From IMG/VR virus record IMGVR_UViG_3300046336_000146: DNA of 64,000 nucleotides, one strand, 5' to 3'. A model generated the notes under the pieces. It was not told the origin of the DNA. It saw only the letters and a program-made list of their open reading frames with translations, and made no database searches. The stretch comes from an uncultured virus (IMG/VR IMGVR_UViG_3300046336_000146) (Duplodnaviria > Heunggongvirae > Uroviricota > Caudoviricetes). Position numbers and translations under genes: made by a program. Positions 17,412 through 64,000 of the stretch are shown one piece after another; position 1 is the first letter of the stretch, and every line of letters begins with the position of its first letter.

Positions 17412-18573
17412 CTCCTAAATTTATTATTTCTTGTGTGGGTAAAGTTATTTTATAACATTCTGTGTATCCTGCAAACCATATTTCAGGTTTATGTCTATAA
17501 GATTTATACTTTCTGTGCAGTTCATTTTCCAAATCATAAATATATCCTGCTTCTCCATAGTGTAGGTGTACTACTTTAAACCCGTAAGGTAAGTTCCCCT
17601 TAGTGAATCTTTTATTTAATTCTAAAAAAGTTTTTCCTATTTTAAAAAACTGTTCTCTTTCTATATCACACTTTATTAAGTATACACAAGCTGTTCTTCC
17701 GTTGGCTTTTTTTATATATCCACTCTTAGTATATCCACAAGAACCCTGTCTGCCTATTAAACTTTTACTAATATTTTCAGATAAACACTTTCTACAACAG
17801 CCTCCAAAAATATGATTCACTGGGTATTGGTCAAAATAAACATCGTGTACATTGCATTTTATTGTAACTTTTTCTTTACATGACTTATAAACAGTGTACG
17901 TATAGTCACACTTATCACCATGGACCTCTTTTGCTTGTTTTATAAAATCTTCAGTTGTTTTTGATCTAACTCTCCTATAATTTATAGCGCTGCATTTTGG
18001 ACAATCTACTCCATTAAAATGATTCCTCATGGAAACTGTAAAAACTCCGTGTTCTTTACAAACTACATCTATATTTCCTCTCGAATTTCCTACTATTGTG
18101 TTATCGTAGTTGTTTTTATCTCCGTATAACTTGTAAACTTCCTCTAAAAACATTTCTTTATCTGTGGACCTTGTTTTCTTTTCCCTTTTTACTAGATAGA
18201 CTTTTTTGTTTAATAAACTAATAGGAGTCACTTTAAGGATACCTCTTTCTTTGCAAACTATAGATACTGGAGTTCTTTTATTAATATATTCAACTAAACT
18301 GAGGTCATATTTATCTCCATATATTTCTTGCACTTCTTCTATAAACTGTTCCTTACTCTTTCTAGCTTTTTTTATTTGGTCTTCTCTACCGCATTTAGGA
18401 CAATTTGCTCTGTAATGTATTTTTGGAGTTTGTAGAAATGGTCCGTGTTTTTCACATGAAATTTCTACTTCCGTTGTACTGTTAAAATATTCTACTTTTG
18501 AATAATCATATCTATTGCCATGGACTAACATAGCTTTTTCAATAAATTCTTCTGTTGTTGGCTTCTTTGACAT
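17395..18573 (-). CDS. Putative homing endonuclease (repeated CxxH..CxxC modules plus GIY-YIG-like C-terminus)
   Basis: Repeated YDYSKVEY..CEKHG..CPKC units; VYLIK..FKIGKT..GYTEC. Confidence 0.7.
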   Translation of the reverse strand: MSKKPTTEEFIEKAMLVHGNRYDYSKVEYFNSTTEVEISCEKHGPFLQTPKIHYRANCPKCGREDQIKKARKSKEQFIEEVQEIYGDKYDLSLVEYINKRTPVSIVCKERGILKVTPISLLNKKVYLVKREKKTRSTDKEMFLEEVYKLYGDKNNYDNTIVGNSRGNIDVVCKEHGVFTVSMRNHFNGVDCPKCSAINYRRVRSKTTEDFIKQAKEVHGDKCDYTYTVYKSCKEKVTIKCNVHDVYFDQYPVNHIFGGCCRKCLSENISKSLIGRQGSCGYTKSGYIKKANGRTACVYLIKCDIEREQFFKIGKTFLELNKRFTKGNLPYGFKVVHLHYGEAGYIYDLENELHRKYKSYRHKPEIWFAGYTECYKITLPTQEIINLGDERIY

Positions 18574-19077: not shown

Positions 19078-20664
19078 TTAAAGTTCTATTGATTGAGGGA
19101 AGGTTACGATAGTCCCTATATTAAACATTTGTATAGCGCGTTCTGTTGAAGACTCTAATGCTATCCTAATTGATTTTTTTGAGTCAATTACACCATCCTC
19201 AATAAGATTTGAAATTTCATCGGTAGAGGCATTATAACCCCACCCATAACTATCTCTTGCTGATTTTAAGTAATCTTTTCTTAAAAAATGCCACCACTCT
19301 GTTTTTGTTTTTCTATTAGCATTTTCAAGAATTTTTATAAAAGGTTGATTTATTATTTTCTTAACTAGATTGTATCCCCTTTGAATCTCTCTTGTTTCTT
19401 GTACAGTGTTCATAGTATTAGAGATATGGACTAGGGTAGCTCCTCCGCCTACGATATAACCTTCTGCTTTTGAAGACTTTACAGAAGCAATTGCGTCTTC
19501 TACTCTGTCAAACTCCTCTTTTATTTGAGAAGAGTTCAGTCCACCTACTTCAATAATTACAACTTTTCCTTTTAGTCGTTTTACTCTTCTCTCGTCTTTT
19601 TTATCTACCAACTCTAATGTAGAGACTAAATCTGCAACGGCTTGAGGTGCTTCAAAAACTGAAATAGTGGTTGAACTTGATGTAGCTACAAGCTTATCTG
19701 CTAAACCTAATATAAACTCAGGCTTTTCATCTCTTGGGTTATAAACTTTAGCCCCTGTCAACAAAGCAATGTCATTTAATAAAGTCTCACTCTCATATTC
19801 ATCATAACCATTAACTGCTACAACACAGATATTACAACCTATGTTTTTTAACTTTAACATCTCTTCATTCATATCTGAGTTAGGTCTTTCTAAGAATAAA
19901 ACTAGTGGTGTTTTTCTATCTACTTTTTGATAGAAGTTTTTTATAGCCTGTACTAACTTCATATCCACTTCCCAGGTAGCTGAACAAAGTATAGATACGT
20001 TCTCAGAATCATAACTTGCTTTACTTTCTTTATTTATAAAAAAAGCTGTTGTGTATCCATGGCTGTCTAAATACATACCGTTCTGTTCTGTGAAAATAGT
20101 TTTAGGGTTGTTTGGATTTTTTACTACCTCCACTGTACCTTCTTCACCTGCTGAGTTAAAGGCTTCATATATCACCTTAGATAGTGATATGTCATTATTC
20201 ACAGAGGTCCTAATAATTAGTTCTAGTCCCTCATTTGTTATAGGTGATGATAACTCTTCTAATTTATTTTTAACTTCCTCTAAGCCTATTTTTATACCCT
20301 TTTCAACTTTCTTATTAAAGTGTTTTCTATTTAAGTTTCTGATATAGCCTTGCATAAAACATGCAGTTGTTGTTGTACTATCACCTGATTTTTGTAAAGT
20401 TACCGCAGCTCCTGCAATAGCTTGTAATACACCGAAGTTTTCTACTTTATTTGCTTTTCTAATATGTTGCATTACAGTTACCCCGTCTTTTGTAGGTTCT
20501 GGAGGTAAATTAGTATTCGTATTTTCCGTTAACGCTAATTTACCTTCCGCTCCTAAAGTTGTTACTACAACATCACACGCTTCTAAAAAACCTTTATCTA
20601 ACCTCTTTGTATCGTTTATAAAAATATTTTGTTTATTGTTTTTATTTAAAAATGGATTTATCAT
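19078..20664 (-). CDS. groEL: Phage chaperonin GroEL-like
   Basis: TLGAEG, PTKDGVTV, GDSTTT, RVEDAI, GYIVGGGA and GVIDS motifs; 528 aa. Confidence 0.9.
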   Translation of the reverse strand: MINPFLNKNNKQNIFINDTKRLDKGFLEACDVVVTTLGAEGKLALTENTNTNLPPEPTKDGVTVMQHIRKANKVENFGVLQAIAGAAVTLQKSGDSTTTTACFMQGYIRNLNRKHFNKKVEKGIKIGLEEVKNKLEELSSPITNEGLELIIRTSVNNDISLSKVIYEAFNSAGEEGTVEVVKNPNNPKTIFTEQNGMYLDSHGYTTAFFINKESKASYDSENVSILCSATWEVDMKLVQAIKNFYQKVDRKTPLVLFLERPNSDMNEEMLKLKNIGCNICVVAVNGYDEYESETLLNDIALLTGAKVYNPRDEKPEFILGLADKLVATSSSTTISVFEAPQAVADLVSTLELVDKKDERRVKRLKGKVVIIEVGGLNSSQIKEEFDRVEDAIASVKSSKAEGYIVGGGATLVHISNTMNTVQETREIQRGYNLVKKIINQPFIKILENANRKTKTEWWHFLRKDYLKSARDSYGWGYNASTDEISNLIEDGVIDSKKSIRIALESSTERAIQMFNIGTIVTFPQSIEL

Positions 20665-27611: not shown

Positions 27612-27642
27612 TTGCACAATTAAAAATAAAGCCGTACATTTG
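27612..27642 (+). promoter_or_regulatory. Promoter TTGCA-N18-TACATTTG
   Basis: Consensus match. Confidence 0.7.
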
Positions 27643-27680: not shown

Positions 27681-28832
27681 GTGAATAAAAAATGGTACGG
27701 AGTAGGTTCTTCAAAATCACATGAAGATTTCATGGAACAATTGTATGAAAACAATTTAGGTTATAGAAAAGGACTGTTTGAAGTAGTTGGAAAATATAGA
27801 GGAGGAAAGAGTAAAGTCATATTAAAAGACAAATATGGTTACTGCTCTATATGCGCTTATGATTTGACATCAGGAAAAGTTCAAAAAACAACTATAAAAT
27901 CTGCGATATTTAAAACTCAGTACTTAAAAGAATACTTACGACAAAACAATAAAAACTTCTATAATGGCTATTTTAGAATTATATCTGAATATGATACAGC
28001 AAAGAGCGATATTTTAGCTATAGATTCATTAGGAAATATTCATAAAATTAAACCTTCATCCTTACTTAATGGTTGTAATTTATCTATAAAGTCTGCTATT
28101 GATAGAGAGGATTTTTTATTTAGAAAAATATGTAGTAGAAATAAGTATTTTAAATCAGGTGAAATTAAGTATATATCTAGTTTTGTAAAAAATCAAAGTT
28201 GTTTTATAAAAGTCTCTGATGAATTTGGAGAATATATAATGGACATATCAGTAGCTTATGTAGGTTCAAGACCAACAATAGAAATAGCAGTAAACAAAAA
28301 TGAAAATTTAATAAATAGGTTAAAACAAAACGGAGGTGATTATGACTACTCTAATGTCATTTATACTAAAATGGATGATAAGGTAAATATCATATGTAAA
28401 AAACATGGGATGTTTCAACAACGTTCTTCAAATCACATAAGAGGAGAAGGATGTCCTAAATGTGGCACTCAATCTATGTTAGAGATTAATTCTATATCAC
28501 CTACAGGTTGGACATACACTAATTGGATAAATGCAGGAATGAGGAGTAAAAAATTCGACTCTTTTAAAGTTTACATAGTTAAAATGGAATCGTTAGACGG
28601 TAAAGAGGAGTTTTATAAAATAGGTAAAACTTTTCTAACTATTAGAAATAGGTTCAAAGATATTAAAACTTATAAAGTAAGCGAAATATTAAAGATATTT
28701 GAAAGCAAAGACGGTAGATTCATAACAGAAAAAGAAACAGAACTGTTAAGAATAAATAAAAAGTTTAAGTATAGACCTAAAAATAATTTTGGAGGTTATA
28801 TGGAATGTTTTAGTAAAGTAATATATGATTAA
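27681..28832 (+). CDS. Putative homing endonuclease (Zn-ribbon plus GIY-YIG-like)
   Basis: YDYSNVIY..CKKHG..GCPKC; VYIVK..YKIGKT..GGYMECF; same family as 17395-18573. Confidence 0.65.
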   Translation: MNKKWYGVGSSKSHEDFMEQLYENNLGYRKGLFEVVGKYRGGKSKVILKDKYGYCSICAYDLTSGKVQKTTIKSAIFKTQYLKEYLRQNNKNFYNGYFRIISEYDTAKSDILAIDSLGNIHKIKPSSLLNGCNLSIKSAIDREDFLFRKICSRNKYFKSGEIKYISSFVKNQSCFIKVSDEFGEYIMDISVAYVGSRPTIEIAVNKNENLINRLKQNGGDYDYSNVIYTKMDDKVNIICKKHGMFQQRSSNHIRGEGCPKCGTQSMLEINSISPTGWTYTNWINAGMRSKKFDSFKVYIVKMESLDGKEEFYKIGKTFLTIRNRFKDIKTYKVSEILKIFESKDGRFITEKETELLRINKKFKYRPKNNFGGYMECFSKVIYD

Positions 28833-34014: not shown

Positions 34015-34141
34015 CAACACACGCTACAACGGATTTGGGCAATTGGCTTAATGGAAAGTTGGTTTTGTATTTGGGATGATTTGGCAAATCCGAAAATAGG
34101 GCTTAATTTAGTCCCAAACCCGCTGTAGCGCGGGAACGTTA
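34015..34141 (+). repeat. attC-like hairpin site 1 (array 1)
   Basis: CAAC-aca-cgctacaacggatttggg...cccaaacccgctgtagcg-cgggaac-GTTA, 127 bp. Confidence 0.85.
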
Positions 34142-34189
34142 CAGGATATTGTACCAAAACTGTACGTTGAAAAAGAACTCAACAGAAAA

Positions 34190-34765
34190 ATGGAATACGT
34201 AATTATAGCAGTTTTATTAATTGTCTTATTTTTAGTAACTTTGCGGAAAGAAGAAATAACTAAAACAAAAGTTGTTTACATATCAAAACAAGATAATAAC
34301 AATACTATGTCTTATAGTCCAACAACAATAGCGAACTACTTCATACAAGAAAAAGCCAAATTTGGCAAGTTGACTTCAATGAAGTTGATAAAATTAGTTT
34401 ATATTTCTTATGCTTGGTATATTACCTTGAAAGGGAAAGAAAACCCCCTAACAAATGAAAAAGCCCAAGCTTGGAAATATGGACCAGTTTTTCCATCATT
34501 GTATAAAGTAATAAAGAGTGAGGGAACAGTTGAAGTTGAAAAGCCATTGCCCAATAATAGAGAGGAAGTTATTACGAGAGAAGATGCTAACTTTTTAGAT
34601 AAGATGTGGGATTTGTATGGTAAATATAACGGCGTTGAGTTGAGTGCTATGACACATGCTGAGAAAACCCCTTGGAGAGAGGTTTACTGTAGAAATTGTA
34701 ATTCAGAAATACCAGATGATTTGATAATTAGCCACTATACACCAAAACTAAAATCCGCTTCGTAA
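34190..34765 (+). CDS. Panacea (DUF4065/SocA-like) antitoxin; alternative start at 34307
   Basis: IANYFI..LTSMKLIKLVY..AWKYGPV..LSAMTH..TPW motifs. Confidence 0.85.
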   Translation: MEYVIIAVLLIVLFLVTLRKEEITKTKVVYISKQDNNNTMSYSPTTIANYFIQEKAKFGKLTSMKLIKLVYISYAWYITLKGKENPLTNEKAQAWKYGPVFPSLYKVIKSEGTVEVEKPLPNNREEVITREDANFLDKMWDLYGKYNGVELSAMTHAEKTPWREVYCRNCNSEIPDDLIISHYTPKLKSAS

Positions 34766-34769
34766 TTGA

Positions 34770-35135
34770 TTGATTGATTTAAATAGACTCCCAAACACCA
34801 TTCCTGATAATTTTAGAGACGCAGATATTGATGAAGCAGTTTCCGATATTACGTCGTGGAATAAAGATATTTCTCCCGAAGAAGAAAGGTACAGAGAAAA
34901 TACAGTTTTAAGAGATAATTTAGCAAAGGTTTTTACTATTGTAATAATATTTTGGTTAGTCTCTGTTATTCTAATCCTCGTTGGAAATGACTTAAAATAT
35001 AATTTAAGTGACACTGTTTTGGTAACTCTTTTAACCACTACAACAATACAAGTTTTAGGGTTAGTTTATATTATATTAAAAGACTTATTCCCAGGCGGAA
35101 AAGAGAATCCAAAAAACAACAGCACCGCACAATAA
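34770..35135 (+). CDS. Two-TM membrane protein, candidate cognate toxin
   Basis: Immediately downstream of the Panacea gene within the same cassette; two hydrophobic helices. Confidence 0.55.
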   Translation: MIDLNRLPNTIPDNFRDADIDEAVSDITSWNKDISPEEERYRENTVLRDNLAKVFTIVIIFWLVSVILILVGNDLKYNLSDTVLVTLLTTTTIQVLGLVYIILKDLFPGGKENPKNNSTAQ

Positions 35136-35145
35136 CAACATCCTG

Positions 35146-35272
35146 TAACACACGCTACAAGCAATTGCCACAATAGGCTTTCAGAAAAATTGTCTTGTAC
35201 TTGTAAAAATTAGTAATAAACAGAAATATTAATCCGCCTTAATTGGCAACCGCGTGTAGCGCGGGAACGTTG
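35146..35272 (+). repeat. attC-like hairpin site 2 (array 1)
   Basis: TAAC-aca-cgctacaagcaattgcca...tggcaaccgcgtgtagcg-cgggaac-GTTG, 127 bp. Confidence 0.85.
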
Positions 35273-35342
35273 TACCTCATTGTAACAAAACCGCAGAAGC
35301 GAAGACCAAAGAGAATGCAACGTTACTAACAAAATAACAGAA

Positions 35343-35534
35343 ATGAGTTTAAAAGAAAAATTCCAAGCAGTATTTACTTGGAAACTAAAAAAGCCGACAT
35401 TTGAAGTTGGTAAGAGCACAACACCAAAAGAGAAGCTTCAACAGGTTCAGGAATTATGTTTGCAACAAAAAAGAATTTTTAAGGAAGCATTAAGTGGACA
35501 AACATTTTACTATTCTCACTTAAAAACTTTGTAA
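35343..35534 (+). CDS. Cassette ORF, possibly truncated
   Basis: 63 aa; overlaps the convergent minus-strand ORF. Confidence 0.35.
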   Translation: MSLKEKFQAVFTWKLKKPTFEVGKSTTPKEKLQQVQELCLQQKRIFKEALSGQTFYYSHLKTL

Positions 35535-35994
35535 TATAATATTCATAATCTTTCTCGTGAAAGAAATATGAACTTTGATTAAAATTATTTTGGCTTGAAT
35601 CTAAATCCATTCTTGCCTTTAACTCTAAAATTAAACTATGTTTGGAATCTATATTGCGGGTATTTTCTGTGTACTTGTCTTCCATTATACTGGAGCGTCT
35701 CTCGAAATCCCTTTTCACAGAAGTGAATGTCAAAAATGCAGTCAAACCAAGTGCTGTTGTAAAAACAATAAGAATTAAATTTGTGTCACTCTCTTGTTGT
35801 CTGATATACATTTCTTCTTTAAACTGACGTTCTTTAACTTGAGCATTTGTCAAGGGCAGATTAGATTTAAGTCTTATGTTTGCTTCTTTTAGGGTCTCAT
35901 ACTTATATTCAAGATTACTGACTCTGTAATACATAAAAATTATTAATAAAGAAAAAATTATTGTAAGTGAAACGGGGTAGAAGTTGTTTTTCAT
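35479..35994 (-). CDS. Cassette membrane protein (likely start at 35994, MKNNFYPV)
   Basis: Two TM segments; the longer ORF-track start lies at the edge of the repeat. Confidence 0.5.
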   Translation of the reverse strand: MKNNFYPVSLTIIFSLLIIFMYYRVSNLEYKYETLKEANIRLKSNLPLTNAQVKERQFKEEMYIRQQESDTNLILIVFTTALGLTAFLTFTSVKRDFERRSSIMEDKYTENTRNIDSKHSLILELKARMDLDSSQNNFNQSSYFFHEKDYEYYITKFLSENSKMFVHLMLP

Positions 35995-36079
35995 AAAGTA
36001 AAAATTAAAAACCAAAAGTAATAAAAATAAAGTTAAATTAGCGATGGAAAAGCGTAGCCGAAAAGAAAAGCCGAACCAC

Positions 36080-36205
36080 CAACACACGCTACAAGCAAGT
36101 TGGGCAAAGGTGTTGAATTAAAAAACGGTTTTGTACTTTCCGAAAAAAGTAACAACAGAAAATAAATAATTATTAACCCAACCTGCGTGTAGCGCGGGAA
36201 CGTTA
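36080..36205 (+). repeat. attC-like hairpin site 3 (array 1)
   Basis: CAAC-aca-cgctacaagcaagttggg...cccaacctgcgtgtagcg-cgggaac-GTTA, 126 bp. Confidence 0.85.
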
Positions 36206-36259
36206 TATGATAGCTTAACTAAAGAAAGAGCTAAAGTAGAAGCGAGAAAATATATAACA

Positions 36260-36562
36260 ATGGAGTATAATATACCCGAATGGGAAAGAAAAGCTTACGA
36301 AGAAAAAGCAGAAAAATTTGAAAAAGACCAAAGTATTACCTTTACAATAAGTAAAGATAAAAATGGTATTGACAGACCAACAGAGGAGGAGAGAAAAACA
36401 ATAATCGACAAATTAGAGCCTATAAGACAAAAAGCCGAAAATGAAATAGCAGAAATATTAAATAAAATTACCAAGGAACATTCTATTTATATTTGGACTA
36501 ACTGTAAAGAAAAAATAGAATTAACTTTTATCTATCCGAGTTCTAATTTAGTTTATAATTGA
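36260..36562 (+). CDS. Cassette hypothetical protein
   Basis: 100 aa between sites 3 and 4. Confidence 0.6.
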   Translation: MEYNIPEWERKAYEEKAEKFEKDQSITFTISKDKNGIDRPTEEERKTIIDKLEPIRQKAENEIAEILNKITKEHSIYIWTNCKEKIELTFIYPSSNLVYN

Positions 36563-36565
36563 AAG

Positions 36566-36802
36566 TTATTTAAAGATTTCATTCATAAGACTTAATCTAT
36601 ATTCTTCGGGTTTAAACTTACCGTCTAGAGCATAATCTTTGGCATTTTCATTATACAGTTTATATCTATTATTTAACAAGTCGTTATTAAATTCGTTTAG
36701 ATATTTTTGTGTTTCAGGTACAACCTTTTTAACAAATCTAACACCATCTCTAATAGTGTATAACTCTTCATTAACAATTAAAAGTGCATCTTCATAAGTC
36801 AT
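36566..36802 (-). CDS. Cassette hypothetical protein (likely start 36802, MTYEDALL)
   Basis: Convergent with 36260-36562, stop codons 3 bp apart. Confidence 0.5.
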   Translation of the reverse strand: MTYEDALLIVNEELYTIRDGVRFVKKVVPETQKYLNEFNNDLLNNRYKLYNENAKDYALDGKFKPEEYRLSLMNEIFK

Positions 36803-36902
36803 AATTAAAGTTTTAAAGTGAGAACCAAAAGTAAGAAATAAATTTATAAATTGCGATGGAAAAGTAAAATGTGTAAAAACAGAAGCATAAAAAGCCATCA
36901 TA

Positions 36903-37027
36903 TAACACACGCTACAAGCAAGTTGTGGCAAAGAGCTAAAATAAAAACGGTCTTGTACTTGCCGAAAAAAGTAACAACAGAAAATAAATAATTATTAACC
37001 CAACCTGCGTGTAGCGCGGGAACGTTG
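36903..37027 (+). repeat. attC-like hairpin site 4 (array 1)
   Basis: Near-copy of site 3 (last ~60 bp identical), 125 bp. Confidence 0.85.
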
Positions 37028-54906: not shown

Positions 54907-57681
54907 ATGGATAAAATAATAGAGCTTAAACAAAAATATTTATATACAGAAGCAACAGCAGAAGAAATTTTAAGAGAGATTTTTGAAATATACGCACCCA
55001 GCGAACGTTTCCTCAACAACTTTGATCTAGAAATAAAGTATAAAGGTTACGGAATACATAACCTTTATCAAAGAGGGATTTATATTTCCGAAGGAGAGTA
55101 CTCTGACTGTTTAGAAGAAGCTTATGAAATAACTAAAAAATTAGGGTAGTTATGAAAAAATACAGATACAATATTTCAACAAATACAATTTGGACTTCAT
55201 TCGATTACGGAGAAGTTGAAGCAGAAAATTTGGAAGAAGCAAGAGAAAAAGCAATCGAGAAACTAAAATACGATGTTAAAAAATGCAATGACGCTTTTAA
55301 GTATTGCGACATCACTCAGGGCTTCGAAATAGAAATGGACTACAAACAAGTAGAGGTTGAATTAATAAAAGAATAAAAACTTATGAAAAAAGTATTAATC
55401 ATTTTATGTGTGTTATTATTTATATCTTGTGATAAGTACAGAAAAGATGTAATTGTAGGTAAGTATATTCAAGGAGATACTTACTACTCTTTAAGAATTT
55501 TTGAAAAGTTTACATTTTTTAATAACGGCGCGATAAAAATTTACACACTCGAAGGAGAACAGATTACTGAAAAGAATATTGACAGTATAAATGTAGAAGC
55601 AGATAATTTTATAAAACTATTAAATAAAAAAGTAAATTAAACAACTATGAAATATCACGTGCTATTAGGAGATTTTGGTTTTGTAGGTGAAGATGCTTAC
55701 ATTTATTTAATAGACGAAATTGCGGAAGTAGAAGAAAATGAGTTAGATAAATTCTGCGAAGATTCTTTAGATATATATGAAGGATATTTAATTCCTGAGA
55801 AGTTTAATGGAAAAATTTTAATGTAACAAACAAAATGGATAAACAATTATTACTTGAGAAAGTAAAAGAAAAGAAGTATTCACACGAACAGTTATTAGGT
55901 TGGGTGGGTGCCCTTCCAGGGAGTCTTAATTTCAGGAAACCTTCTGTTCACAAAGTAGGAGATGTTTTTATGCATAGTGTCTTTAAACATCCCTATATTT
56001 TATTAAAAAAAGGTAAAGAGGGTTGGATTTGTGGATTGTTTACGTCAGAAGAAAATTGTCCTGAAATATTAGAAGCTTGTCAGTCTAGATTTTTTAATGG
56101 TAATTATATAACAAAAGCTTTATTCAGTACCTCAGAAATAACAGGCACTTTTCTAGGAGTATATGACAACAACACGCACTTAAGAGAGTGTTACAAAAAT
56201 ATTAAAACCGCATTAAATTTAAAATGATAAAAATAGTCAACTCAAATACCAAAGAATTTTTTAATAAATCTTCAATAAGAGAAGTTGTAAGAGAATGGTT
56301 CGAAGAAATTAGAGCCAAGAATAAAAGTATTACCAAACAAGATGTGGAAGAAAACATAGAACTTCTTCAACAATGCTACATGAAATCATTACACAGATTT
56401 GTGAATGATAGTAGAATTATGTATACCTCTTCTGTTTATTACAAAAAGTTTTTAAACGGAGAAAGGGATAAAGAGTATATTGACATACTTAAGGCCAATG
56501 TTAAAAGATTATTTTTAGAGACTTGTTTAGATAAAAATTTCAGATTAGACTTAAGATATGCTAATTACTTATGCCTAGAGACTGTTGAAGGCCTGTTTTA
56601 CGAAGGGGAAGTGTACAAACATCTTAACAACGTACATTTTTTCCTAAACAGAAGTTTGTATGGGACTAGAGAAGAGGATGTGGAATTACATTTAGTTCCA
56701 GACCAAGGTAAAAATCATTATACAATTAGCGCAGAATTAAAACACAAATTTAAAAAAGTTTAAAAAGATTTAAAAAATGAAATTATTTAATATAGAATTA
56801 AAGTTAACAGAGCAAGAGGAAAAGTTAGAAGGTATTGTAGTTAAACTTTTAAATGCTTCGGCCACCACAAAAAATTTAAAAGTACTCTCAACAGATACAA
56901 TTTGTCTACTAAAGAATGAGGAAAAACATTTCACAGTTCTAGTGGATAGTGTTGGGATTGCAATACAAAATACTACCTACAGTACAAGATACAGACTTAG
57001 AGATAAATTTCTTTCTCATTTGAAGGATATGATAATAGAGAAGGTAAATGAAGAAACAGATAAGTATATAGCTGAGATATATAGTAAAGAAACAAACTTA
57101 CTAGACAACATAAACAAAATTTTATAAATTTAAATTACCATGGGTAGAGAAGTAGCAGTAGTAACAGGGTACATAATGTACAACGATTTACTAGAGGACG
57201 CAATAGGAGTAAACGATAGCTTTAATTCTAAAATTGATTTAGCTATTGAATTAGCTGAAAAGTTTGTTGAAAAATATCCCGAAGATTATAACTGGGAAGA
57301 ATCAGAACTAGATTTTGAAGAGACAGTAGAAGAATTTTTAAAACCTTATCTGTTATGCTTTTAAAAGAGACGACTAAACTAGCTTTAAAATTTGTAGAAA
57401 ATAATTTTGACAATATTAATTTAGAAGCAGTAGGGAGTATAACTTCTAAAGAGCAAATTTTAAAAGAAATAAGGGAAGACTACAGCACCGCCTGTTGGAT
57501 CTTAACAGAAGTTATGAGTTGGGGTACAAAAGACGGGAAAGATTATATTGTTGAGTATATAGTTGATAATGAAGAAGATATTTTTGTTATAAAACTTGAT
57601 GATAAGTATTTTAAAATAAATTATGAAACTCACTGTTTAGATGAGTGTGAACCAAAATATAAAACAATAGTTTATTTTTAG
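54907..57681 (+). other. Cluster of small hypothetical ORFs, including a lipoprotein-like ORF at 55383-55640
   Basis: Co-directional ORFs; MKKVLIILCVLLFISC lipobox-like signal. Confidence 0.55.
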
Positions 57682-57814
57682 TTATGAGTAAAGAAACAAT
57701 AAAAAAATGGTGGGACAGTTTATATCCTTCAACACAAATAATTTTGATGGACAGGCACCAAACAGATAATATAGAGACAATCTACAACAAAGAGTTTAAA
57801 TTCAAAAAATAAAA

Positions 57815-58099
57815 ATGTATAAGCTACCAGTTGATTACAGAAAGTTGCATTACACTGAAAGAAAAAATGTCAGATTACAATACATAGAAGAACAAAAAGG
57901 ATTGTGTTATTATTGTGGGTGTAATCTAAAAGAGGAAGCACCAAAACATATTAAGGATAAAAAAATTAATTGGAAGTTATTTCCTGAAAACTTTTTACAG
58001 TATCCAATTCATTTACAGCATAACCATAATACTGGAATGACTGAAGGCGCAGTTCACAACTATTGTAATGCGGTTATGTGGCAATACGATGGTCGTTAG
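57815..58099 (+). CDS. HNH / endonuclease VII-like protein; terminal cassette remnant
   Basis: CYYC..HLQHNH..GAVHNYCN; stop codon abuts the first attC-like site. Confidence 0.6.
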   Translation: MYKLPVDYRKLHYTERKNVRLQYIEEQKGLCYYCGCNLKEEAPKHIKDKKINWKLFPENFLQYPIHLQHNHNTGMTEGAVHNYCNAVMWQYDGR

Positions 58100-58108
58100 T
58101 CTTGCTAC

Positions 58109-58236
58109 TAACGTTCCTCTAGTGCAGCTCGCTAGGGAGAAGCAAGCCGTTTGACTTCGGATACAAAACAATTATAACAAGTACAAACTGATTTATAAAT
58201 TGAGCCAAATCTAGCAATAGCATATATGCGCTGTTA
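58109..58236 (-). repeat. attC-like site A (array 2, degenerate stem)
   Basis: Plus strand TAACgtt...gctag...ctagc...ctGTTA, 128 bp. Confidence 0.7.
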
Positions 58237-58270
58237 GGGCAAGTACGGAATTTTAATAACTGAATATCTT

Positions 58271-58655
58271 ATGGAAAGAACTGAAGTCTTAGAAAAATTA
58301 AAAGAAGAATATAGAAAATTATCAAAAATATCAGACCAACAGTTTGAGGAAAGGTTCTCAACTTCTAAAAATGAACAAAGATGGTATGATGATTTATATA
58401 AAGACTACCATACTATAAAAATAAGGATAGATTTGTTATTAGAATTATTAACATAATAATTGAGATATGAGTAATACAATTAAAACACAAAATTATGGGA
58501 CTATTGAAATAATCACGATAGACCCGCACACAGGAGAAGGGACTAATGATTTAAGATTAGAAATTGATTCAAAATACTGTTCTGCTTGGATTCATTTGCA
58601 AGAAGATGAAGTTATGAAATTACGAGATGAGCTTAACGAATGGCTCGACTTATGA
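58271..58655 (+). other. Two-gene cassette (58271-58456, 58467-58655)
   Basis: Bounded by gttagggcaagtac / gtatttgccctaac. Confidence 0.7.
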
Positions 58656-58677
58656 AAAATAATAGTAGTATTTGCCC

Positions 58678-58805
58678 TAACGCCCTATGGCTATAAGCAG
58701 TTGCCAATAAAACTGCCTAAACTTCAAATTAATAAAGAATGAAAACAAGTACAAAACGGTCTTTAAATTTAAGACAAAAGTGGCAATTGCTTATAACCAC
58801 TGTTA
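58678..58805 (-). repeat. attC-like site B
   Basis: TAAC..ggctataagcagttgcca...tggcaattgcttataacc..GTTA, 128 bp. Confidence 0.85.
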
Positions 58806-59122
58806 TGAGTAGTGCGGTGTTGTTAAAAGCAAATCACATTTTATTTTGGTGGTATTATAAACGAGTTCCTAAATTCTTTCATAAATGGACTATTTTAAAA
58901 AGTATCACACTACTTAAACAAAATTACGAACACGCAGAATTTAGGTATGAAGGATTAAATGAAGTTGTTAGAAACGCTTCAAAAAGAGAAAGAGAAATGA
59001 CTACTGAAATTTCTAATTTAAGACTAAAATTAATGGGAGTTTCGCAAGATGTTATTGACCCTTTAAATGAAATTTTTGGAACGAATTTAAAAGGAAAATC
59101 GACTTTTGAACGAGATAATTAG
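58739..59122 (+). CDS. Cassette hypothetical protein starting inside site B
   Basis: 127 aa; cassette ends gttatgagtagtgc / gcattactcataac. Confidence 0.55.
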   Translation: MKTSTKRSLNLRQKWQLLITTVMSSAVLLKANHILFWWYYKRVPKFFHKWTILKSITLLKQNYEHAEFRYEGLNEVVRNASKREREMTTEISNLRLKLMGVSQDVIDPLNEIFGTNLKGKSTFERDN

Positions 59123-59131
59123 CATTACTCA

Positions 59132-59260
59132 TAACGTTAAGGCATATACGCAGTTACGGATTAAGTAAATCCTAATCATCTAATTAAACAACAATAAAAC
59201 CAAGTACACACAAATATTATAAATCAAGACTATTGCCGTAATTGCTTATATGCAGTGTTA
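59132..59260 (-). repeat. attC-like site C
   Basis: TAAC..gcatatacgcagttacgg...ccgtaattgcttatatgc..GTTA, 129 bp. Confidence 0.85.
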
Positions 59261-59284
59261 GCAGTAGTTATTTTAAACACAATT

Positions 59285-59560
59285 ATGAAAAGAACACAAG
59301 TAAAAAAAGCAACCGTACACGTATTTGATATGGAGGAACTAGCGTGTAAAATAATGGGAATTGATTATGATGAAATTAATGCAGATACAGAAGTCATAGA
59401 AGAAGAATTATATAATCAATTTGAAATAGATTTAGAGAATTTTAGTGAAATAGTAAACAGATTACTTCCGCTTATTGATATTGGAGAAAGTCCGTTAACA
59501 AAACAGAAATTTAAAGGTTTTTCAACTGGTCAAATGTGGTTAGCGAAGATTCCTGTATAA
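59285..59560 (+). CDS. Cassette hypothetical protein (ATG at 59285)
   Basis: Cassette ends gttagcagtagttat / ataattactgctaac. Confidence 0.65.
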   Translation: MKRTQVKKATVHVFDMEELACKIMGIDYDEINADTEVIEEELYNQFEIDLENFSEIVNRLLPLIDIGESPLTKQKFKGFSTGQMWLAKIPV

Positions 59561-59567
59561 TTACTGC

Positions 59568-59693
59568 TAACGTTGAGCATAACTCTAGTTACGGACTAAA
59601 CAAGCCGAAACATTCAGATTAAAAACCGTATCACTGATACAAAAACATTTATAAATTCAAGACCGAAACCGTAATTAGTGTTATGCATTGTTA
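59568..59693 (-). repeat. attC-like site D
   Basis: TAAC..gcataactctagttacgg...ccgtaattagtgttatgc..GTTA, 126 bp. Confidence 0.85.
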
Positions 59694-59721
59694 GGGTTAG
59701 GTTTTTTTTAAACTCAAGATT

Positions 59722-60099
59722 ATGAAAGGTTCAGAAAAAGCACATTTATTTAAAACAGGACAATATGGAAGATTGTATATTACAAGTAGTTCCCACGCAA
59801 GAGGAAACACATTAAGAATACAAGTGCTTCCCGAAGGAGAAATAGCAATTCCAAATGGAAGTGGAAATACTTGCTTAAACAAAGATGCAGTAATTGTTTA
59901 TGATGTTGTATCAGGACAAAGAGGATGGACAGAAGCTTACGGATGGTTGCACGAAGGAAAATGGCAAGATGATTTTAGAAAACTTGTTATAGATGCTGAA
60001 AAAAAGATTGAATATTTAAGAAAACAATCAGAAAAATCGAAAGTAGAAAAACAAAAACAGGAAGAAGAAAAATTGTCTAAATTATTAAGCGACTATTAG
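59722..60099 (+). CDS. Cassette hypothetical protein
   Basis: 125 aa; cassette ends gttagggttaggttt / aaacttaaccctaac. Confidence 0.65.
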   Translation: MKGSEKAHLFKTGQYGRLYITSSSHARGNTLRIQVLPEGEIAIPNGSGNTCLNKDAVIVYDVVSGQRGWTEAYGWLHEGKWQDDFRKLVIDAEKKIEYLRKQSEKSKVEKQKQEEEKLSKLLSDY

Positions 60100-60127
60100 T
60101 ATGCGGTATGTTTGGCAAACTTAACCC

Positions 60128-60217
60128 TAACGTTTTGCGTATATACGAGGTACGCCAAACGATAAATTTCAAATTATAAACAAATGCTTCTAGGCGTATC
60201 TTGTATATACGCTGTTA
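60128..60217 (-). repeat. attC-like site E
   Basis: TAAC..gcgtatatacgaggtacgcc...ggcgtatcttgtatatacgc.GTTA, 90 bp. Confidence 0.85.
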
Positions 60218-60312
60218 GCAGTAGTACGGTTTTAAACCACAAATGCTCAATCGGAGAACTGAACCTTTTTCTTTTCTTTTTTGAGCGATGGCAAAAATAT
60301 TAAAATAAAATT

Positions 60313-61086
60313 ATGACAATAGATTTAAGATACGGTGATACAATAGAACAAATGAAATTGATACCTGATAAAAGTATTGATGCTATTATTTGTGATTTAC
60401 CTTATGGTACAACTGCTTGTAAATGGGACACGATAATACCATTTACTAACCTTTGGGAACAATACGAAAGAATAATTAAAGATAACGGAGCAATAGTATT
60501 AACCGCTTCACAACCATTTACAAGTGCTTTGGTTATGAGCAACCCTAAATTATTTAAGTATGAATGGATATGGGAGAAAAATGTTGCAAGTAATTTTATG
60601 CAGTATAAATTTATGGTTGCAAAAAAACACGAAAACGTATTGATATTTGCAAAAGGTAAAACAAAATATAATCCAATTATGGAAGATAAATCAGAACTAT
60701 CTATACAGCGAATGAAATATAAGTTTAAAGATAGAAAGCAATCAGAACACTATAAAACGGATATTTCAGAAGACAGGTCAGATAGGCAAGAAAAAATGTA
60801 CCCAACAAGTGTAAAGAAGTTTAACAGAGAAGTTGGATTACATCCCACGCAAAAGCCAATATCAATGATGGAATATTTTGTGTTGACTTATACTGATGAA
60901 AACGATACAATACTTGACAATACTTTTGGAAGTTGTACTACGGGAATAGCTTGTATAAATACTAATAGGAACTTTATCGGTATTGAGAATAATATGGATT
61001 ATTTTAATATTTCTTTAAAGAGGGTGGAAGAAAAAAGAAAAGAAAAAGAATTTAACGTAGTAACTTCATTCGGAGATGGAATGTAG
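60313..61086 (+). CDS. DNA N6-adenine/N4-cytosine methyltransferase (beta class), cassette-borne
   Basis: DLPYG, HPTQKP, LDNTFGSCTTG; cassette ends gttagcagtagtac / gtattactgctaac. Confidence 0.9.
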   Translation: MTIDLRYGDTIEQMKLIPDKSIDAIICDLPYGTTACKWDTIIPFTNLWEQYERIIKDNGAIVLTASQPFTSALVMSNPKLFKYEWIWEKNVASNFMQYKFMVAKKHENVLIFAKGKTKYNPIMEDKSELSIQRMKYKFKDRKQSEHYKTDISEDRSDRQEKMYPTSVKKFNREVGLHPTQKPISMMEYFVLTYTDENDTILDNTFGSCTTGIACINTNRNFIGIENNMDYFNISLKRVEEKRKEKEFNVVTSFGDGM

Positions 61087-61149
61087 TATTACTGCTAACT
61101 ACTATATGTATTACATGCATTAAAACCTTAATAAAATAAATACTTTACA
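61086..61149 (-). other. attI-like site
   Basis: Last cassette end (TAAC at 61096-61099) is not followed by a hairpin but by the 50-bp leader of the integrase. Confidence 0.55.
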
Positions 61150-61977
61150 ATGAAAACTTCTGAACACAAGGGTAACTTCATTCAGGAAATGAAAAGAAGA
61201 GGTTACAGAGAAAATAGTATAAAAAACTATAGTAGTTGCATAGATGTATTTTTATCAACTATTAAAAAAGATCATCCTAAAAATATCAATGAACAAGATA
61301 TAAAACATTTTTTAGGTAATTGTATAAGAGCTAATACTCAGAGAAATTATCAATCGGCTATAAAACTGTTTTACGAAATATGTTTTAATCAAAAACAAAA
61401 GTTTAAGAATATCCCATATACAAAAAAAGAGAAAAAACTTCCTATTATTTTATCAGTGGACGAAATTCAAAAAATGTTTGATGTTTGTGAGAATAAAAAG
61501 CATAAATTAATTTTGGCTCTGTTGTACTCTTGTTCTTTAAGAGTTTCAGAAGTTATAGATTTAAAGTGGGAAAATATTGATAGGAGTAGAAGAGTGATTT
61601 ATATTTTAGATGCTAAGGGAGGTAAAAATAGACAAGTTGGATTGAACGATACGCTGATAAAGTTAATGGAAGAGTATTACAGAGCCTATAAAACTAGAAT
61701 TTTTATTTTTGGAGGGCAATTTTCTGAACAATATTCGTCAAGAAGTGTGTTGCAAGTGGTAAAGCAACTTTCAATAAAAGCGGGGATTGACAAAAGAACC
61801 TATACTCACTTAATAAGACACTGTTCTGCAAGTCATATGGTAGAGAATGGAATCGATATCAATTTAATCCAACGGATTTTGGGGCATCAAAATGTTAAAA
61901 CTACGTTAATTTACACTCATATTTCACACAATATAATAAGTAAAGTACAGTCACCTTTAGAAAAGATATCAATTTAA
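61150..61977 (+). CDS. Tyrosine recombinase, integron-integrase-like
   Basis: N-terminal SAM-like domain (RRGYRENSIKNY); catalytic R (LRVSE), K (KGGK), HLIRH, LGH and Y (TLIY). Confidence 0.9.
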   Translation: MKTSEHKGNFIQEMKRRGYRENSIKNYSSCIDVFLSTIKKDHPKNINEQDIKHFLGNCIRANTQRNYQSAIKLFYEICFNQKQKFKNIPYTKKEKKLPIILSVDEIQKMFDVCENKKHKLILALLYSCSLRVSEVIDLKWENIDRSRRVIYILDAKGGKNRQVGLNDTLIKLMEEYYRAYKTRIFIFGGQFSEQYSSRSVLQVVKQLSIKAGIDKRTYTHLIRHCSASHMVENGIDINLIQRILGHQNVKTTLIYTHISHNIISKVQSPLEKISI

Positions 61978-63002: not shown

Positions 63003-63111
63003 TCAACAAAATTAAAAAGTATTAACCTTACCAACAGGGTAAAAAACAAATAAAAGCCTCAAAAGGTTGTTAGTAAATAAAATGAAAGCAACCTTCTTTG
63101 AACAGAGAAAG

Positions 63112-64000
63112 ATGAAAAGAATAGGAAACATATTTGATAAAGTAGTCAGCTTAGAGAATTTAAAAATCGCCGATAAAAAAGCTAAAAGAGGAAAAGCAAA
63201 TCAAAAAGAAATAAGAGAGTATTTTAAAAACAGAGAGGCTAATTTAGAAACACTTCATAACAGTTTAATTAATGGAGAATTTAAAACGTCCAACTATTCT
63301 GTTTTTAAAGTATATGAGCCAAAAGAAAGAATAATATCAAAACTACCTTTCTTCCCCGACAGAATAATTCAATGGGGTCTTTATTTACAGTTAGAAAATA
63401 TATTTACATCTACATTTACTGTGGACACTTATAGTGCAATAAAAGGAAGAGGTATTCATAAATTATCAAATAATTTAATTAAGTCTTTAAAAGATTTAAA
63501 TAAAACAACGTATTGTTTAAAGTTAGATATAAAACAATTTTATCCATCTATAGACAATAGTATCCTAAAAAACAAGATAAGGCGTAAAATAAAATGTAAA
63601 AAGACACTATATTTATTAGATAATATTATAGATTCCGCAAAAGGCTTACCTCTTGGTAATTTATTAAGTCAGCTGTTTGCTAATGTTTATCTTAATGAGT
63701 TAGACCATTACATAAAACAAGATTTAAAAGCAAAGTATTATTTTAGGTATTGTGATGACATTTGTATTTTATCAAATAATAAACAGGAGTTACATAGTAC
63801 ATTACATATTTTAAAGAGTAAATTAGCAGATATAAAATTAGAAGTTAAGGGTAACTATCAGATTTTTCCTGTAGAAAAAAGAGGAATTGATATTGTAGGG
63901 TACAAACATTTCCATACACATAAATTGTTAAGAAAATCAATTAAAAAGAATTATATTAAAAACAAGAATAAAAAGACACATTATTCGTGGTTAAAACATT
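63112..64000 (+). CDS. DGR reverse transcriptase (runs off the right edge)
   Basis: MKRIGNIF..EPKERII..PDRIIQ..GRGIH..LDIKQFYPSI..GLPLGNLLSQ..YFRYCDD (YCDD at 63748-63759). Confidence 0.95.
   Translation, partial: MKRIGNIFDKVVSLENLKIADKKAKRGKANQKEIREYFKNREANLETLHNSLINGEFKTSNYSVFKVYEPKERIISKLPFFPDRIIQWGLYLQLENIFTSTFTVDTYSAIKGRGIHKLSNNLIKSLKDLNKTTYCLKLDIKQFYPSIDNSILKNKIRRKIKCKKTLYLLDNIIDSAKGLPLGNLLSQLFANVYLNELDHYIKQDLKAKYYFRYCDDICILSNNKQELHSTLHILKSKLADIKLEVKGNYQIFPVEKRGIDIVGYKHFHTHKLLRKSIKKNYIKNKNKKTHYSWLKH

Follow-up and report, generated by a model that had tools for sequence, protein, structure and literature searches.

Organization of array 2

We analysed a 64,000-nucleotide stretch of DNA from an uncultured tailed virus (IMG/VR record IMGVR_UViG_3300046336_000146), referred to below as the window, and focus on array 2, a run of genes separated by hairpin sites that lies on the plus strand directly upstream of a tyrosine recombinase gene. 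A covariance model built from 38 hairpin sites (R1) and run against the window at E<=1 recovers nine sites and no other, five on the plus strand and four on the minus strand. The first and last of the plus-strand sites, 58109-58236 and 60128-60217, were absent from its training set. The four minus-strand sites belong to a second cluster, array 1, and arrays 2 and 1 are therefore oppositely oriented.

Read toward the recombinase, array 2 opens with site A (58109-58236, +), recognized by R1 at 32.5 bits (E 7e-4; fold z -0.97). Its boxes, TAACG...GTTAG, and the conserved loop are present; it is probably a degenerate, old site, because its 5' arm no longer pairs well. The associated cargo (58237-58677, +) holds two small open reading frames (ORFs), 58271-58456 and 58467-58655. 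Site B (58678-58805, +; 107 bits) is an inverted repeat bounded by TAAC at 58678-58681 and GTTA at 58802-58805, and precedes the cassette B gene (58805-59122, +), a member of a conserved family without assigned function. Site C (59132-59260, +; 100 bits) is followed by a gene for a protein of 94 aa (59276-59560, +; phrog_10957) with no relative among the viral contig proteins searched, and site D (59568-59693, +; 84.6 bits) by one for a protein of 125 aa without assigned function (59722-60099, +). The last site, E (60128-60217, +; 49.3 bits, fold z -3.66), is of a short-loop form and stands before an N6/N4 DNA methyltransferase gene (60313-61086, +; Pfam PF01555, E 1.4e-26; phrog_67), probably an anti-restriction gene.

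Beyond the methyltransferase gene lies a putative docking site (61096-61112, +), equivalent to the attI of integrons, where TAAC at 61096-61099 is followed by TACTATATGTATT. It comprises TAAC, about 5 nt and ATATGTA, has no clear inverted arms, and stands about 50 nt before the ATG of the Xer-like tyrosine recombinase (61150-61977, +; 275 aa), the single recombinase gene at the locus, which matches Pfam PF00589 and PF13495 and has its catalytic motifs intact. TAAC and the conserved right half recur at this distance from the recombinase in all 11 related viral-contig loci, with a different left side each time; this count leaves out L007, which is identical to L006, and includes L005, nearly identical to L003. 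In the comparison with the closest relative (L001), homology sets in at 61095; between loci, no homology exists among the arrays that precede the recombinases. Metagenome contigs likewise diverge from the window after 61099, and L053, L090 and L091 diverge after TAAC. An attI-like site at 61096, and an array 2 polarity opposite to that of array 1, had both been proposed in a preliminary description of this DNA; the recurrence of the site and the break of homology at TAAC, together with the strands of the R1 sites, bear these proposals out.

Cultured Polaribacter phages complement the picture. Freya_1 carries an empty docking site, TTTACAAC/ACCCCTATAAC, and in Freya_10 4.9 kb of units are inserted where that of Freya_1 is empty. 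A recombinase-adjacent docking site that takes up cassettes, as demanded of an integron, is thus found here, as seen from the 11 of 11 loci, the insertions in Freya_6 and Freya_10 and the empty site of Freya_1. Overall, we regard array 2 as probably the cassette store of an integron-like site-specific recombination system in a large phage of the Flavobacteriia type.

Hairpin sites and complementary cargo ends

On the plus strand, a site reads TAAC, G, a spacer of 3-7 nt, a stem of 18-20 bp, the loop, the return stem, 1-3 nt and GTTA. The loop spans 36-76 nt, is rich in A+T and holds a conserved motif, CAAGTACAAAAC...TTTATAAAT, the second element following 8-10 nt after the first (58176-58205, 58745-58775 and 59199-59230 in the window). 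This motif is common to arrays 1 and 2 and to many related sites, and could be a site for an accessory protein or a promoter. In a plain MAFFT alignment, 13 of the 14 predicted stem pairs display compensatory changes. With the boxes added, 87.6% of the cells pair, as compared to 64.8% in column shuffles (none of 500 shuffles reaches the observed value), and the covariation score of 0.518 falls to 0.07-0.13 when the partners are slid by 1-3 columns. Judged by this covariation, the hairpin sites are conserved structures and not mere repeats. The folds of the plus and minus strands differ little in free energy, and consistent extrahelical bases, which set the choice of strand in integrons, were not seen in the sites. 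Outside the window, R1 detects 60 sites across 33 further sources, and each of them shares its strand with the recombinase or the anchoring ORF; five of the 60 are in a Flavobacterium metagenome-assembled genome outside the R1 training. In recombinase loci, the matches are located solely upstream of the recombinase.

A second layer of complementarity links the two ends of each cargo. The 10 nt that follow the GTTA of a site (x) and the 10 nt that precede the next TAAC (x') are reverse complements, whether this TAAC belongs to a site or to the docking site. Of 49 adjacent pairs, 38 match at no fewer than 7 of the 10 positions and 28 at 9, while the threshold of 7 is reached by 2.1% of 3537 cross-record pairs and by 1 of 58 pairs taken across one same site. 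Among 38 distinct cassettes, positions 1-5 are Watson-Crick pairs in 37-38, with all four pair types represented, whereas position 7 combines a G in x with a T in x' in 34 of the 38; pairing stops after position 11. In cassette C, two compensatory double changes in x and x' separate the window from the Flavobacterium phage FPSV-F7. The ends of cargo A, GTTA-GGGCAAGTAC and GTATTTGCCC-TAAC, are also complementary; these were read by eye, the site finder having missed site A. Since x and x' are complementary, an arm of 15 bp, made up of GTTA/TAAC and the 11 nt of x/x', could form beside the hairpin in a circularized unit or in a long single-stranded stretch of the array. The fixed G.T, a C.A on the other strand, would then mark the TAACG...GTTA strand as the folding strand.

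The same type of end delimits array 2 on the side away from the recombinase. Here an endonuclease VII/HNH-like gene (57815-58099, +; Pfam PF02945, E 1.6e-5; phrog_14729) terminates with a TAG at 58097-58099 that opens a distal left arm, TAGTCTTGCTAC, followed by the TAAC at 58109-58112. We also considered the GTTAGT...ACTAAC at 58095-58112 as a mini-hairpin, but it is better taken as an ordinary left arm of the x' type. Similarly, cargo ends that are inverted repeats recall a terminal-inverted-repeat transposon or a miniature inverted-repeat transposable element; however, no direct duplication flanks the units and no transposase match was obtained among the cassette ORFs and neighbours scanned, and we rejected this candidate.

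What moves as a unit

The preliminary description held that a site travels with the gene to its right. For recent events, sequence comparisons support that the hairpin moves with the gene on its right. Unit B of the window, from the TAAC of site B to that of site C (58678-59135), recurs in three other phage contigs (97.6%, 96% and 89% identity in L018, L019 and L020, respectively) with unrelated neighbours on both sides. Compared with FPSV-F7, phage 6H is without exactly hairpin S3 and its cargo, and only TAACG is common to both breakpoints. Moreover, Freya_10 differs from Freya_9 by one extra unit of 307 nt directly beside the docking site, at CAAC/ACCCC, with flanks that are 100% and 99% identical, and Freya_6 differs from Freya_5 by one extra unit of 472 nt at the equivalent place, again at CAAC/ACCCC, with flanks of 98-99% identity. 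Both Freya units start with G and the hairpin and finish with x'-(T/C)AAC. The boundaries of the Freya and 6H units therefore place the crossover within AAC/.

The cassette D gene offers a hint on how cassettes are recruited. Copies of about 90% identity in L047 and L048 (1140-1215 in each) are ordinary genes without hairpin or x/x' ends; they stand behind promoter boxes of the TAnnTTTG type, and the homology runs from 1-3 nt before the ATG to within about 10 nt of the stop.

Two further observations were made on related arrays. Danklef_1-5, Polaribacter phages of another species and from another host strain, share 38% of the Freya_10 array in three pieces of 97.3% identity, which fits with an exchange of cassettes between phage species. 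Phage 6H holds a second copy of hairpin S2 and its cargo (L015, 4887-5277), 2.4 kb from the first, that is 100% identical to the FPSV-F7 copy and is without the first ~10 nt, i.e. TAACG and the next bases.

Gene polarity and the start of gene B

In array 2, every ORF of at least 60 aa that is not the shadow of a longer ORF is on the plus strand and points toward the recombinase. The sole minus-strand ORFs in 58100-61100, 59697-59882 (61 aa) and 60402-60542 (46 aa), are both inside longer plus-strand ORFs, and the claim that every cassette ORF is on the plus strand holds with this limit on size and overlap. The arrangement is a family trait rather than a local oddity: of 49 units, 40 have ORFs on the hairpin strand only, two on the opposite strand only, four on both and three on none, the usual order being hairpin, gene and TAAC, toward the docking site and recombinase. 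In a classical integron, by contrast, the gene precedes its attC and is read away from attI and the Pc promoter. With 40 of 49 units on the hairpin strand and the classical integron the reverse relative to docking site and recombinase, the proposal that the cassette genes run antisense to the recombination polarity is therefore correct.

The gene ends are fitted closely to the units. The stops TAG 59120-59122, TAA 59558-59560 and TAG 61084-61086 overlap the 11-nt pairing end before TAAC by 2, 3 and 2 nt, respectively, matching the earlier remark that three stop codons reach into the right terminal repeat. In 34 of 51 distinct units the last co-directional ORF stops 0-12 nt before TAAC or on its TAA; a fixed TAG or TAA 12-13 nt ahead of TAAC is common.

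The start of gene B is a different matter. The ORF 58739-59122 indeed begins in the loop of site B and passes the 3' arm and the right box, as described previously, and its ATG at 58739 was taken as the real start, so that the site would encode the first 22 residues of a 127-aa protein. No stop interrupts the frame from 58739 onward, either in the window or in L018, L019 and L020, and 23 of 66 homologs are called with long N-termini. On the other hand, 41 of the 66 homologs are 102-111 aa long, in line with the 105 aa obtained from ATG 58805, and the alignment has near-invariant columns from L29 and invariant ones from N32. In-frame stops occur upstream in L021, L023 and L024 (the check leaves out L025 and L028), where the only ATG is 12-15 codons before FWWYY; ATG 58805 of the window is 13 codons before this motif. 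Similarity among the extensions follows from the conserved site DNA. The first 22 residues of the three closest proteins differ at 3-5 times the frequency of the remainder. Hence homolog lengths, conservation onset and upstream stops speak against the loop ATG, which we consider an unlikely start; translation likely begins at ATG 58805, the outcome that the preliminary description had named as contradicting its view, and the N-terminal extension resembles site DNA that has been translated. Because this ATG overlaps the right box as GTTATG, the start codon is still provided by the site, only not the one in the loop. In 5 of 49 units a start falls within 8 nt of the right box. GenBank annotations place the starts of two Freya_10 genes, Freya10_77 and Freya10_10, inside hairpin loops, so loop starts are not to be dismissed in general.

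Expression of the cassettes

Promoters of the Bacteroidota style, TTG...TAnnTTTG, are present in the window, with clear ones at 27612, 32776, 37383, 61996 and 62407, but none of the canonical form is located in array 2. No promoter facing the array was found on the docking-site side either. A scan for sigma-70 promoters and terminators returned 0 terminator-like sites and 21 promoter-like ones against 25.6 expected, i.e. no excess. As no canonical promoter or terminator was found in array 2, it is plausible that its genes are transcribed by read-through from the upstream plus-strand block. We also weighed whether each cassette has its own promoter in the hairpin loop, with expression independent of read-through. 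The loop motif is conserved upstream of every gene, the hairpin moves with the downstream gene, and TAnnTTTG-type boxes occur in some Freya cargoes. The motif nevertheless matches none of the testable consensuses, and with array 2 devoid of the TTG...TAnnTTTG promoter that is clear elsewhere in the window, this alternative appears less likely than not.

Hairpins between genes may also act at the level of RNA. The promoter early stem-loop (PeSL) elements of T4-type phages surround small accessory genes with repeated stem-loops in hyperplastic regions subject to gene shuffling. They are promoter-plus-terminator units shuffled by homologous recombination. A comparable role of the present hairpins as terminators, processing sites or stabilizers, with mobility as a side effect, would agree with the hairpin strand being the sense strand in 40 of 49 units, with G.T pairs that would be G.U in RNA and with the conserved loop motif. 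It is difficult to reconcile with the outcome of the promoter and terminator scan, with array 1, where most genes are antisense to the hairpin strand, with x/x' pairing that spans whole genes, and with a docking site that is the insertion point and has TAAC but no hairpin. Additional differences from PeSL are the 4-nt core breakpoints and the presence of a recombinase, besides the docking site and the missing terminator and promoter consensus. We therefore judge an RNA-level role to be highly improbable.

The recombinase

According to Pfam, the recombinase consists of a SAM-like (SAM_4) and a catalytic (Phage_integrase) domain only. The best NCBIfam model is XerA_Arch (NF040815, 'site-specific tyrosine recombinase/integron integrase') with 197 bits at a cut-off of 220, followed by XerD with 166 bits and integrase_gron (TIGR02249) with 165 bits in two stretches at a cut-off of 265, all scores being below the equivalog cut-offs. 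Archaeal XerA (5HXY), the best solved relative, aligns end to end. The match to VchIntIA (2A3V) includes the C-terminal SPL tail and is split; 20 residues of the query (176-195) stand opposite 62 residues of IntI4 (180-241), so the insertion characteristic of the IntI catalytic domain (I2 helix) is absent. Passages in the literature report this insertion as essential for single-strand recombination by integrons (PMC8138268, PMC7790495).

The family is large and uniform, with 1810 relatives at E<=1e-30 after clustering at 90%. The best 120 of these 1810 are 242-279 aa long, all but one 275-279 aa, and automatic annotation labels them 'XerD' only. The Freya phages carry a recombinase 31% identical to that of the window and share the architecture of the cassette locus.

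Relation to known systems

The system shares several traits with integrons: a tyrosine recombinase gene beside a docking site for added cassettes, small genes between imperfect hairpins that are conserved in structure and variable in sequence, terminal inverse cores ...AAC and GTT..., and methyltransferases as frequent cargo. Accordingly, a further hallmark of integrons is present, namely imperfect hairpin sites whose inverse cores are conserved and whose stems covary. The crossover AAC/ is moreover the complement of the integron G/TT, as given in the parts of Qi et al. (2023, PMC9892861) that concern the cleavage point. At the same time, the phage recombinase is without the IntI insertion, and the hairpin comes first in each unit, with genes read toward the recombinase. 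The predicted right arm of 15 bp is cassette-specific, formed from two cargo ends and equipped with a conserved G.T wobble, and the carrier is a phage of Bacteroidota. As both the IntI insertion and the classical gene polarity are lacking, the system is therefore integron-like and not an integron.

Clusters of attC sites lacking integron integrases (CALINs) have been reported from virulent phages, including a Polaribacter phage, in the passages of Qi et al. (2023, PMC9892861) on phages, as hairpin-bounded cassettes of which some hold DNA methyltransferases. CALINs are without integrase, as are array 1 of the window and the arrays of F. psychrophilum phages, which have no adjacent recombinase. 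In the 12.4-kb region of P12002L around the methyltransferase, R1 yields 0 matches, and on this basis the Polaribacter CALIN of that study cannot be assigned to the present site class. In those same passages (PMC9892861), no phage recombinase or docking site is tied to the phage arrays, and the sites were tested with the bacterial IntI1.

With Xer/dif systems the recombinase shares its simple Xer-type make-up, a core-binding and a catalytic domain and no arm-binding domain. In mobile elements of the CTXphi type (IMEX), Xer recombination acts on single-stranded phage DNA folded into a hairpin, with exchange of a single strand. The pdif modules of Acinetobacter plasmids consist of genes flanked by inverted Xer sites (PMC7399989). 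Xer systems differ, however, in relying on a host pair, XerC and XerD, where a single phage-encoded recombinase is found here, and on a 28-bp dif site of two inverted arms around a centre of 6-8 bp, none being evident here, where multi-unit arrays are built at a dedicated docking site. Archaeal XerA and the archaeal integron integrases provide the best NCBIfam model and the best solved relative, but the score is below the family cut-off and the context is one of phage cassettes, unlike chromosome dimer resolution. Integrons with an 'inverted integrase' are associated with spirochaetes; PMC8618304 yielded no passage on them.

A published description of this phage cassette system was not found in the literature searched, supplements aside. 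In the accessible text of Bartlau et al. (2021, PMC8776804), where the Freya phages are described, the terms 'cassette', 'hairpin', 'variable region' and 'indel' each appear 0 times.

Array 1 and the surrounding phage

Array 1 (34015-37027, -) belongs to the same site class and has four nearly identical hairpin cores, at 34015-34141, 35146-35272, 36080-36205 and 36903-37027, without a recombinase nearby. Genes on both strands make up its cargo, among them one for a SocA/Panacea-domain protein (34190-34765) and two convergent pairs. Pairing occurs between the left flank of one site and the right flank of the site two further on, which would fit the insertion of a unit into a site whose flanks paired with each other.

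The window belongs to a large tailed phage of the Flavobacteriia type, with genes for a terminase, a portal protein, a GroEL-like chaperonin (19078-20664; phrog_5725, E 3.7e-70), a helicase and a UvsX-like recombinase. A related pair of HNH/endonuclease genes (phrog_681 and phrog_559; 17395-18573 and 27681-28832) may encode homing endonucleases, one adjoining the terminase gene and the other situated among replication genes. Two genes downstream of the array 2 recombinase, a reverse transcriptase gene (63067-63999; Pfam RVT_1) runs off the end of the window; its best NCBIfam model is the group II intron reverse transcriptase, with 99.5 bits at a cut-off of 300, followed by Drt3a. We rejected it as a component of the cassette system, no reverse transcriptase match being present near any other recombinase locus examined.

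Weighing the cassette interpretation

A number of observations count against a recombinase-driven cassette system. The enzyme is without the insertion reported as essential for single-strand recombination by IntI, and F. psychrophilum phages with the same site class have no relative of it at E<=1e-20, so that either the enzyme acts in trans or something else moves the units. A strand bias suspected in the hairpin stems from the window sites is unsupported, with 22 G.T against 19 A.C; the two are equal in frequency, so strand asymmetry is carried solely by the x/x' wobble. Array 1 is an exception in polarity, with genes on both strands and most of them antisense to the hairpin strand. Furthermore, comparisons between loci show the link between hairpin and gene as not permanent, with older re-assortment taking place at the right box GTTA. 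In L053 the methyltransferase cargo (92% identity), unchanged in x and x', stands behind another hairpin; in FPSV-F7 an 81% identical copy of the cassette C cargo, spanning GTTAG to TAACGTT, is located between unrelated hairpin cores; hairpin core E in L012 (90% identical) and hairpin core D in metagenome contigs have other cargo on both sides. The earlier claim on the travelling site thus stands for the recent events, namely unit B, 6H and Freya, and does not extend to a permanent bond. The deletion that distinguishes 2A from 6H occurred via a 15-nt microhomology inside two hairpin cores and not via a box. Finally, assembled contigs of four metagenome runs contain no joints over 57600-61400, uncovered parts being uninformative, and no recombination product, circle or single-stranded intermediate was seen in the sequence data examined.

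Several of these points would suit a recombinase that serves lysogeny or dimer resolution at TAAC/TACTATATGTATT, while the genes are shuffled by homologous or illegitimate recombination at repeats. The arrays of F. psychrophilum phages without this recombinase, the deletion by microhomology, and the re-assortment of cores and cargoes at a conserved right box are all compatible with such a scheme, and the accessible part of Bartlau et al. (PMC8776804) regards the Freya integrase as pointing to a temperate lifestyle. Yet the only sequence common to the breakpoints of the recent indels is (T/C)AAC, too short to sustain homologous recombination, and in three Freya comparisons the insertions are exactly at the conserved site beside the recombinase. 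Sites are confined to the region upstream of the recombinase and to its strand. The window phage is also large, with UvsX-like, helicase and GroEL-like genes, and no lysogeny gene besides the recombinase turned up among the 14 large ORFs scanned. We consequently find this division of labour quite improbable and retain the cassette interpretation.

Proposed mechanism and implications

In the cassette interpretation, units are joined at TAAC/, and new ones enter at TAAC/TACTATATGTATT, the docking site some 50 nt ahead of the recombinase gene. Each hairpin therefore precedes its gene, and the genes point toward the docking site and the recombinase. The TAACG...GTTA strand would fold as single-stranded DNA, and the recombinase would act on this folded strand, cleaving at AAC/ or within it in the way IntI cuts the bottom strand of attC, with replication resolving the recombination product. 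Over longer time, hairpin cores and cargoes also re-assort at the right box. The weakest step is expression, where the genes would most likely be transcribed by read-through, or else from a loop promoter not recognized as such.

A broader proposal, which we put forward tentatively and at somewhat below even chances, is that of a widespread, hitherto undescribed phage counterpart of the integron. A minimal Xer-like enzyme without the IntI insertion would recombine folded single-stranded hairpins, an arm formed across the cargo would fix the strand choice by its G.T wobble, and anti-defence genes such as those for methyltransferases and Panacea-domain proteins would be traded. As the genes face the recombinase, they would in this proposal be expressed from phage transcription, with the recombinase transcriptionally coupled to the array.

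If true, integron-type gene capture would be bound neither to the IntI lineage nor to bacteria, and the need for the IntI insertion in hairpin recombination would be challenged. The reversed gene polarity would represent another way of getting cassettes expressed. Bench work can address the system directly in the cultured Polaribacter Freya phages, which differ by whole cassettes at the docking site. A recombinase family of at least 1810 members at 90% clustering, so far 'XerD' by name only, would then run cassette platforms in the phages of Bacteroidota.

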